Of a DNA stretch of 64,000 bases, positions 17,580-18,548 are shown piece by piece. Made by a program: the position numbers and the translations under genes. Positions within the stretch are counted from its first letter, which is position 1. Every line of letters starts with the position of its first letter. Under the pieces are notes generated by a model that saw only the letters and a list, made by a program, of their open reading frames with translations, did no database searches and was not told the origin of the DNA. Source of the DNA: a virus (Duplodnaviria; Caudoviricetes); the IMG/VR virus record IMGVR_UViG_3300020050_005097, positions 12,308 through 76,307 of that record, one strand, 5' to 3'.

Positions 17580-18548
17580 AGAAAGCGCCTCGGACTATCC
17601 GATATTTAACGCAGGGCGTCTACATGAGTTCTCTTTGTGATACATGCAATAAGAGTCCTACCTCCTATCAGGTTTCGGGAGCGCCTCCAATTGGAGGAAC
17701 CACATGGTGTAGGAACCAGTCTCCCTATACCACCCCTGCTAAAAATACAAACAGCGCCGGAGCAGAGCCAAAATCTACTAACCCAATTCGAGGAAAGGAT
17801 TCCTGTCATGAGGTGCATTCGATTCTGACTCTGCTCCGACACTAGTGTTTGTGGGGGAACGGCCCGGTAGCTCCGTTCATTACATGAGAGTGTACCCGAC
17901 ACACATAGTGCGCCTGTTCCGGGTAAAAGGGATTGCTCTCAAAACCCTTGTTTCTGAAGCAGTACTTTATGCCGACGTTCGAACTAACTTCGAATCCGCA
18001 GATAATCTGTCAAATATAAGACCGGTAGCTGCACGTTCTTATACTTACAGATCGACGCCCACACAAATGGCTCTTTCGAGGTTCAGAAACGATTCCAACC
18101 GCGTGCTTCTGCATTTAGCCACGGGTTAGAATAGAGCGATGAGCGGGTACCAGAGTTCTCCTATACTCAGCTGGTATAAGTCTCCCTCTGGCCCCATCTC
18201 TCACCATCACTCGCTGATCACGCTTCCAACATGATCACTAGGTTTCCGACTGGAAGTTGTCGGTCGCCTCGGGTCCCTTACGGGTAACGCCACGAGCTGG
18301 TTTTTTGTTTAACCCGCAGATTGCCGTACACACCCGGACCCCAGAAGGACCGCGGGGGCGAGTCATCCTCGCTCAATCTGTCGTTGCCGTCTTTTCCTTG
18401 ACGTTCTACTTAGTGGGGGCCGGTGTGGTATCCATCCGGCATTACATGAGGCTAGCCTCGACCACTTGCTCGAAGTCCACGACGGTATGCGTGACCTCAA
18501 AACCCACTAACGCTCTGAGCTTAAAGCCTCTTTAGCCTCGCTCAGACG
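17580..18548 (-). ncRNA. candidate giant (~950-nt) structured non-coding RNA
   Basis: no SD-led ORF; more than 15 nested 5-9 bp inverted repeats over whole length; strand inferred from context. Confidence 0.6.

Follow-up and report, generated by a model that had tools for sequence, protein, structure and literature searches.

What is encoded by a kilobase of phage DNA in which no credible gene can be found? The kilobase in question is a gap at positions 17541-18553 of a 64,000-nucleotide (nt) piece of viral DNA (the window, bases 12308-76307 of a 76.3-kb IMG/VR virus record). The 76-kb genome, which is estimated by CheckV to be 100% complete, contains a siphovirus-type structural block and a primase/polymerase ~62% identical to its counterparts in Gordonia and Rhodococcus phages, and all credible genes in the window lie on the minus strand. 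The gap is located in a small-gene block downstream of the polymerase, where it extends from the stop codon of a gene at 18554-18862 (TAG at 18554-18556) to the Shine-Dalgarno (SD) sequence AAAGGAG and the ATG of a gene for a 108 amino acid (aa) protein at 17214-17540; SD and ATG (17552/17540, minus strand) set the 3' limit of the non-coding stretch. An original prediction, made from the sequence alone, had placed here a giant structured non-coding RNA of ~950 nt. What we found is large, structured, non-coding and phage-carried as proposed, but composite, consisting of a predicted ribozyme, an RNA of ~600-660 nt and a 200-nt 3' domain. The explanation that we favour, and which we regard as probable, is a self-processing non-coding RNA gene on the minus strand of the small-gene block, belonging to a family of phage RNAs led by a pistol ribozyme.

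The gap encodes a non-coding RNA and holds no conserved open reading frame (ORF) under any genetic code. On the minus strand each frame of 17541-18553 is interrupted by 14-16 stop codons, reading TGA, TAG or TAA as sense does not open the gap, and the genes adjoining it use all three stop codons. The longest minus-strand ORF in the gap (98 aa, GTG start) lacks an SD sequence and is absent from homologs. The lack of an SD-led ORF noted in the original prediction was thus borne out, and the same prediction had named an ORF conserved in homologs as the observation that would speak against an RNA; the only sizeable ORF is not kept there. A search for frame-consistent protein remnants in the gap returned none, and ARAGORN found neither a transfer RNA (tRNA) nor a transfer-messenger RNA (tmRNA) in it.

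Instead of coding capacity the minus strand shows pronounced folding. Its minimum free energy (MFE) over 994 nt is -384 kcal/mol, compared with -330 +/- 8.3 kcal/mol for dinucleotide shuffles (z -6.53); the plus strand of the gap gave z -3.36, and two neighbouring minus-strand coding stretches of equal length, used as controls, gave z -1.04 and -0.42. The RNA lies on the minus strand. Nearly all of the nested inverted repeats from which the RNA had been predicted return as helices in the minus-strand fold, and three of them turned out to be parts of a pistol ribozyme, namely its pseudoknot (ctgagc/gctcag), its P3 helix (ttagtggg/cccactaa) and a stem within the P3 insert (gccgg/ccggc). One pair had to be reinterpreted: the repeat at 18317/18374, described earlier as crossing and pseudoknot-like, is the closing stem of an expanded hairpin instead, and the true pseudoknot is that of the pistol.

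A transcript, which the original prediction had suggested looking for, was found in metatranscriptomes. Part of the stretch is present in twenty public runs from eleven studies, and we compared 8 kb around the gap with three true metatranscriptomes from three studies (activated sludge, sediment and one unlabelled metagenome) and with one DNA run. Each RNA run contained a single contig of 500-590 nt, located at 17805-18306, 17837-18395 and 17803-~18396, respectively, with 98-99.8% identity. The remaining 7.4 kb had essentially no RNA-contig cover, and the DNA run covered 27 of 30 bins, flanks included. Two RNA contigs end ~12 nt downstream of the predicted ribozyme cut (at 18395/18396) and none enters the ribozyme, an indirect hint, and no more, at the Mg2+-dependent self-cleavage expected of its class, which yields 2',3'-cyclic phosphate and 5'-OH ends; at the other side, two of the studies yielded contigs whose ends (17803/17805), only 2 nt apart, fall in the tip of a long hairpin. 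This pattern is hard to explain without a discrete RNA that is much more abundant than its neighbours. The ~950 nt may not be a single molecule, and the RNA in the metatranscriptomes spans only ~18396-17803. A circular RNA was considered and rejected, the contigs having no wrap-around ends.

The 5' part of the gap was assigned by a comparison of positions 17200-18900, both strands, with all 4227 models of Rfam 15 at E<=10 (cmscan). The only match was Pistol (RF02679), a ribozyme class reported by Weinberg 2015 and Harris 2015, at 18551-18493 on the minus strand (41.8 bits versus a gathering score of 34.5, E 7.8e-6). The alignment matches the upper-case consensus blocks UCGUC, GCGA, UAAA, UUA and CAGAGCGU. 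The predicted self-cleaving ribozyme occupies 18400-18551 and consists of P1 (CCUC/GAGG, 18551-18548/18539-18536), a 6-bp pseudoknot (CUGAGC/GCUCAG, 18545-18540/18520-18515), P2 (5' strand 18528-18525, 3' strand 18407-18403) and P3 (UUAGUGGG/CCCACUAA, 18510-18503/18417-18410), the latter carrying a structured insert of 85 nt (18502-18418). P3 is misplaced by the linear Rfam model, and its pairing was taken directly from the sequence. It is followed by a GU junction at 18409/18408, and by the rule for this class the cut is predicted between G18409 and U18408. P1, the pseudoknot, the conserved junction nucleotides, P3, the GU junction and the phage association are all shared with the pistol class, whereas the P3 insert, an imperfect P2 and the fusion to a conserved module and a very large RNA set the window copy apart. 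In P2, GGCU would pair with AGAAC (U-A, C-G, G.A, an extra A, then G-C); in relatives, including a canonical copy scoring 60.8 bits in the contig L025, the order is N-N, N-N, G.A, G-C. The pseudoknot covaries in relatives (CUGGGC/GCCCAG, UUGGGC/GCCCAA), and P3 covaries as well, since its changes keep the pairing both in homologs (U-A to U-G in L083 and L086) and in a second copy in the window (U-A to G-C). Pistol ribozymes cleave at a 2-nt GU junction of fixed length, belong to a phage-associated class and do not need the P3 loop, bimolecular constructs without it being active (PMC4604425). By sequence, the first 150 nt are a pistol ribozyme, which probably frees the rest of the RNA.

A second pistol of the same subtype was recovered at 20655-20790 on the minus strand as an 85% self-match of the genome, with P3 GUAGUGGG...CCCACUAC, an insert of ~70 nt and a GU junction. 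Its 5' core scores 32.0 bits (E 0.0014) in Rfam, just under the gathering score, so that standard annotation would miss it. It directly precedes the SD sequence of a gene at 20177-20626, a neighbour of a helix-turn-helix (HTH) gene, and cleavage at this site would give that gene a 5'-OH leader of ~30 nt. The same pistol core is found by nhmmer downstream of the polymerase in seven related phages, and in 80 polymerase-anchored loci of relatives the pistol core was the only element in common with the gap (blastn and nhmmer).

Close homologs of the whole locus were reached through the downstream and upstream proteins on the contigs L083, L084 (partial) and L086, which are independent assemblies from unrelated samples; the homologs of the 108-aa protein are P0001 and P0002. 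By other routes the gap and its surroundings were hardly found again: a blastn search with the gap gave no match among 50,697 phage records, exact 20-25-mers of the conserved core gave none in IMG/VR and only the L084 contig again among metagenome contigs, a 25-mer from the RNA is missing from all 185,579 GTDB species genomes, the flanking proteins had no match in IMG/VR, and Pfam and PHROGs assigned no family to the neighbouring small proteins except an HTH in a 194-aa protein. A gene-free gap of ~1 kb is present at the same place in L083 and L086, and in L084 for the portion held by that contig. The flanking genes are ~77-84% identical, a level that parts of the gap exceed. For the 3' 300 nt RNAalifold predicts 91 pairs, 11 of which are changed on both sides with pairing kept, e.g. 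GGAGCAGAG/CUCUGCUCC versus GGAGUGGGG/CUCUACUCC. Some hairpins are replaced as a whole and insertions and deletions comprise whole modules. The covariation that had been called for in homologs thus exists, in the form of compensatory changes plus swapped hairpin modules in three related contigs.

The association of a pistol with a conserved downstream RNA is not restricted to these contigs. A pattern scan of IMG/VR for this pistol subtype recovered at least 117 loci, and in about one quarter to one third of the loci with this subtype the cut is followed by a fixed module, consisting of a few P2 nucleotides, a 5-bp hairpin with a loop starting with AAGG, a hairpin 2 and AAACAAAAAACC. A covariance model of this module (R1) matches 30 of 100 pistol loci at E<0.01. 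In the R1 alignment, which is model-fitted and therefore favours structure somewhat, 94% of cells pair and 60 cells are changed on both sides, compared with 19.4 +/- 3.8 in shuffled and at most 18 in slid alignments. RNAalifold returned no structure for the gappy alignment of 28 sequences and was replaced by single folds and the covariance-model alignment. Among these 28 aligned sequences, which stem from different viral contigs, ACAAAAAA is invariant, and hairpin 1 presents its AAGG loop on three different stems (CUGUG/CACAG, CGGAG/CUCCG, CGUC/GACG). The arms of hairpin 2 differ in almost every family sequence, and its loop is often the palindrome UGAUCA. After the A-rich motif the aligned sequences have a core in common, comprising GCUCGUG, a GNRA hairpin (loops GUAA, GCAA or GUGA on covarying stems), a hairpin with a conserved ACUYCCA loop, a UGAUC hairpin and GCGAGUGA. 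The window holds hairpin 1, hairpin 2 and AAACAAAAAACC in family order, and its post-cleavage 300 nt alone find L169 (E 1e-4) and L125 (E 3.8e-4) by nhmmer, both of which match R1. In several members the pistol is followed by 635-925 nt of structured sequence (z -3.2 to -6.3), which is gene-free as judged by the lack of SD-led ORFs, and the genes downstream of family RNAs are unrelated to one another. Among the known members of this recurring family of pistol-led phage RNAs, the window RNA would, by its sequence, be the largest elaboration. We found no description in the literature of a conserved RNA fused downstream of a pistol, although our coverage is incomplete and priority not certain.

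These comparisons also bear on one alternative, a non-functional spacer made up of decayed genes or mobile-element remnants, in which folding would be incidental and the RNA contigs would be degradation-resistant fragments of read-through transcripts. Insertions and deletions of whole modules between close relatives, and the small number of close homologs, would suit such a spacer. However, a spacer accounts neither for compensatory base changes in many helices nor for loop motifs that are invariant across distant phages, and a 53-nt block of the 3' domain is identical in the window and L083 while the flanking genes are only ~77% identical. Together with a folding z-score far beyond the coding controls and the lack of frame-consistent protein remnants in the gap, this makes a spacer highly improbable.

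A more serious alternative is suggested by the 3' end of the gap. The last 200 nt (17752-17553, minus strand) are, as judged from alignment and RNAalifold, closed off as a domain of their own, which is very highly conserved, more so than the flanking genes, and extends to the SD sequence of the next gene; a closing helix of 16-19 bp (GUUUGUAUUUUUAGC-GGG/CCC-GCUAAGAAUGCAAAC) would enclose three hairpins and uses the U-rich tract that precedes the domain and the sequence just before the SD. By this arrangement the domain may be either an extension of the RNA formed on read-through or a leader of the next gene. The whole stretch could, in fact, be a long structured 5' leader of the 108-aa gene, with a pistol that uncouples two messages, a 5' hairpin and compact folds that stabilise the message, and a 3' domain beside the SD that tunes translation, and there would be no trans-acting RNA. 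In homologs the closing helix, with its end 1 nt before the SD, is invariant, and all four close homologs carry the same gene behind the RNA. For pistol copy 2, directly before an SD, processing of an mRNA is the natural reading, and processing of polycistronic transcripts by such ribozymes has been proposed in reviews (PMC6765202). Yet the RNA contigs of all three studies lie on 17803-18396 and not on the gene or the 260 nt before it (contigs cannot show absence, and the missing cover on 17541-17800 is uninformative for the 3' domain). Across the wider family the RNA is followed by unrelated genes, some of them tRNAs, and ~0.9 kb with GNRA loops, replaceable modules and invariant motifs exceeds what known stabilising leaders need. 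We therefore regard a mere leader as unlikely, and a self-processing non-coding RNA gene as the better explanation.

Several points nevertheless weigh against such an RNA gene. The RNA runs consist of assembled contigs, which do not give strand, true ends or expression level, and they were selected for holding this stretch; moreover, contig ends can reflect strain variation, and the contig of run X14 ends at 18306, where variants begin. As read from the sequence, P2 of the window ribozyme appears weak and imperfect, with one extra A relative to relatives. The long hairpin at 17844-17752 is not recognised as a terminator by a consensus scan, and the close homologs number only four, one of which is incomplete. 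The 5' module of the window reaches only 17.9 bits (E 0.79) with R1, because hairpin 2 is expanded to a 74-nt three-way junction, and the link of the window to the family thus rests on invariant motifs, shared architecture and the nhmmer matches to L125 and L169. Finally, the 3' 200 nt stay conserved as far as the SD, which a leader would explain as well.

A further possibility was that the locus belongs to a large RNA class already described. The original prediction had left open whether the RNA is a member of the GOLLD/ROOL class or a new one; membership in GOLLD, ROOL, OLE or the group I/II introns was not upheld, and the second part of the proposal stands, there being no match in Rfam 15 at E<=10 other than the pistol. 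The cmscan of 17200-18900 gave no GOLLD, ROOL, OLE, HEARO, intron or YrlA match, no GOLLD, ROOL, OLE or HEARO match was obtained at gathering score in the whole window, and eleven family loci gave only pistol, tRNA and tmRNA at gathering score. A divergent member of GOLLD/ROOL or of another curated family (OLE, HEARO, group I/II intron, Y RNA) would be consistent with the ornately folded structure, size and phage origin of the RNA and with the position of relatives beside tRNA, tmRNA or Y-RNA genes. GOLLD and ROOL RNAs are likewise phage-borne, several hundred to more than 800 nt long and folded into multiple domains with GNRA and A-rich elements, and they are often found near tRNA islands, much as relatives of the window RNA occur in RNA-gene islands by tRNA or tmRNA genes (PMC12286853). 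In contrast to them, the window RNA has a cis-acting ribozyme at its 5' side and a different core (AAGG hairpin, ACAAAAAA, ACUYCCA loop). An intron was rejected, as the flanks are two independent genes, each with its own stop and SD, and no Rfam intron matched; a Y RNA or YrlA acting with Ro60 was rejected, too, the gap having no YrlA match and no tRNA or tmRNA by ARAGORN, and the 76-kb genome no TROVE gene (PF05731, Ro60). Membership in a known class is thus extremely improbable, the least probable of the explanations weighed here, and an RNA gene of its own kind remains the reading that we prefer. A partial parallel is offered by the theta (HDV-like) ribozymes, which are also small self-cleaving ribozymes placed to trim an adjacent phage non-coding RNA gene; they are of another class and are found beside viral tRNA genes, whereas the window pistol would form the 5' end of a large RNA (PMC10879173).

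The following sequence of events would be consistent with the evidence. An operon transcript would carry the pistol directly after the stop codon of the upstream gene, and the ribozyme would cut it co-transcriptionally between G18409 and U18408. The freed RNA would start with a 5'-OH, five ribozyme nucleotides and a 5'-terminal hairpin, would fold into many closed domains and, stabilised by this compact folding, might accumulate to levels far above the neighbouring mRNAs as a molecule of ~600-660 nt. Its 3' end would fall within the long hairpin 17844-17752 or shortly beyond it; together with the U-rich tract that comes next (UUUGUAUUUUU), this hairpin looks like a terminator, a role we infer from the arrangement. 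On read-through the last 200 nt might extend the RNA, or they might serve as the leader of the next gene. What the RNA would do in trans is a matter of conjecture: our guess, which we put forward tentatively, is a stable scaffold that binds itself, through palindromic or complementary loops, or an RNA-handling factor of host or phage, by analogy with genes of phage RNA islands. In a broader sense, and with slightly less reserve, the family might be an undescribed class of ribozyme-capped large phage RNAs, with the window RNA as its flagship and with a pistol as the maker of the 5' end. The RNA itself, stable, ornate and 0.3-0.9 kb long, would be plentiful in transcriptomes of activated sludge and sediment, and during infection it would either self-assemble or capture a host factor of RNA handling or translation; the AAGG, ACUYCCA and palindromic UGAUCA loops and the A-rich strand would be candidates for these contacts. 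If this is true, it would be the first defined biological job for pistol ribozymes.

To our knowledge, only a very small number of large structured RNAs without an assigned function have been described from bacteria and phages, and OLE, GOLLD and ROOL each revealed an unexpected architecture. The locus described here joins two questions, that of large structured phage RNAs and that of the natural role of pistol ribozymes, in that a pistol seems to generate the 5' end of a large phage RNA that is conserved and expressed. Relatives of this RNA recur in many uncultured phages, with tRNA, tmRNA and Y-RNA/Ro60 genes as neighbours. The locus further provides a new RNA family with a seed alignment.

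The domains of the RNA downstream of the predicted cut can be followed along the minus strand. The released RNA would begin within 18385-18408, a segment that includes hairpin 1 with the AAGG loop (CGUC-AAGGAAAA-GACG, 18403-18388) as recognised from the sequence and the family comparison. The expanded hairpin-2 domain (18311-18384), a 74-nt three-way junction at the position of the family's covarying hairpin 2, is closed by CAGAUUG (18380-18374) and CAAUCUG (18323-18317); L083 and L086 have GUUGA/UCAAC at this place, and the run variants X19 and X3 replace C18380-G18317 by U-A, a compensatory change. The A-rich motif UAAACAAAAAACC follows at 18297-18310 and contains the ACAAAAAA that is invariant in the family. 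In the conserved core (18206-18296) we recognise GCUCGUG, the GNRA hairpin CCC-GUAA-GGG (18284-18275), a hairpin CCGAC/GUCGG with the loop AACUUCCA (18263-18246), a UGAUCA hairpin (18237-18215) and GCGAGUGA.

The domains at 17950-18205 are lineage-specific and, according to the MFE helices, comprise a 19-bp hairpin (18205-18135), a UUCUAACC...GGUUGGAA hairpin (18132-18092) and a 141-nt domain closed by GUUUCUGAA/UUCAGAAAC (18090-17950). The second of these covaries (CGUG/CACG to UGUG/CACA in L084). Only the window has the 141-nt domain; L084, L083 and L086 lack it altogether, which indicates insertion or deletion of a whole module. The next domain (17851-17949) is conserved again, with 82-87% identity to the homologs, and contains GGGUUUUGAGAGCAAUCCC, UACCCG/CGGGUA around a replaceable hairpin, CUCAUGUAAUG and GAACGG/CCGUUC; the inner hairpin GCGCAC-UAU-GUGUGU is swapped for CAUGG-GAA-CCAUG in homologs. 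The boundary 17851/17850 is a hot spot of insertion, with 0 nt in the window, 69 in L084, 66 in L086 and 118 in L083 between identical flanks (CCCCCA and CAAACACUAGUG). The segment at 17740-17850 is formed by the long hairpin of ~30 bp (17844-17752) and the U-rich tract; the alifold pairs show a compensatory C-G to U-A change and several A-U to G-U changes, and the hypervariable tip differs in every sequence. The 3' domain (17553-17752) comes last on this strand.

Signals that could drive or use this transcript were searched for as well. Sigma-70 promoter and terminator consensus scans of the minus strand between 16.5 and 21.5 kb returned nothing, and a T7-like promoter at TATAGGGAGA was rejected, as the frequency of such matches equals chance. 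Base pairing in trans with a repeated gene-start leader was likewise rejected, the 24-nt leader at 17546-17569 being unique in the window. A role as a CsrA sponge through GGA loops was dropped, since only AAGG and not GGA is conserved.

Short repeats are a further feature of the gap. The three copies of TACATGAG reported earlier were confirmed at 17621, 17881 and 18443, the last of which had been placed one position off, at 18442; the 64 kb contain six copies compared with 1.5 expected, and half of the six are inside this kilobase. On the RNA strand CUCAUG(U/A)A occurs four times (18450, 17888, 17812, 17628), each time just 5' of a hairpin. One copy is located in the P3 insert of the pistol and one where two RNA contigs end; the copy at 17888 is kept in all homologs and that at 17812 is not.

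The palindrome UGAUCA in the hairpin-2 loops (e.g. L087:4963-5034, L118:2420-2490, L147:11312-11383), where the stem arms vary, suggests loop-loop dimerisation in short members of the family. In the window its two copies (18237-18215) pair within one molecule. The cages formed by GOLLD and ROOL use kissing loops, and by analogy the palindromic UGAUCA loops of the pistol-led family could mediate self-association.

Several members of the family have other RNA genes as neighbours. In L125 the pistol-led RNA is preceded, at a distance of ~690 nt and on the same strand, by a phage tmRNA (3344-4053, minus strand; 87.7 bits); this tmRNA spans 710 nt and thus probably contains a large insert. Three tRNAs follow the pistol-led RNA on the same strand in L147 (9425-11437, minus strand), and one tRNA(CAU) does so in L003 (16057-16350). 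Cleavage of these tRNAs by RNase P could set the 3' end of the upstream RNA in L147 and L003. In L025 (18818-21570; the same contig as L136) a pistol of 60.8 bits, ~770 nt of gene-free RNA, a YrlA-like RNA and Ro60 stand in a row. The YrlA-like tRNA mimic scores 35 bits, below gathering, and Ro60 is a protein of 631 aa with TROVE and vWA domains. The array resembles a cassette for RNA quality control, carried by a phage and placed behind a ribozyme. Through this relative the family is linked to RNA quality-control modules of the YrlA/Ro60 type, from which the window differs in having neither a YrlA match nor, in its genome, a TROVE gene.

A second gene-free stretch of ~270 nt is located at 19241-19513 on the minus strand, with the HTH genes on one side and, on the other, the small genes that lie upstream of the gap. 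It is without an Rfam match at E<=10, and one contig of an RNA run touches it at 19471-19509.

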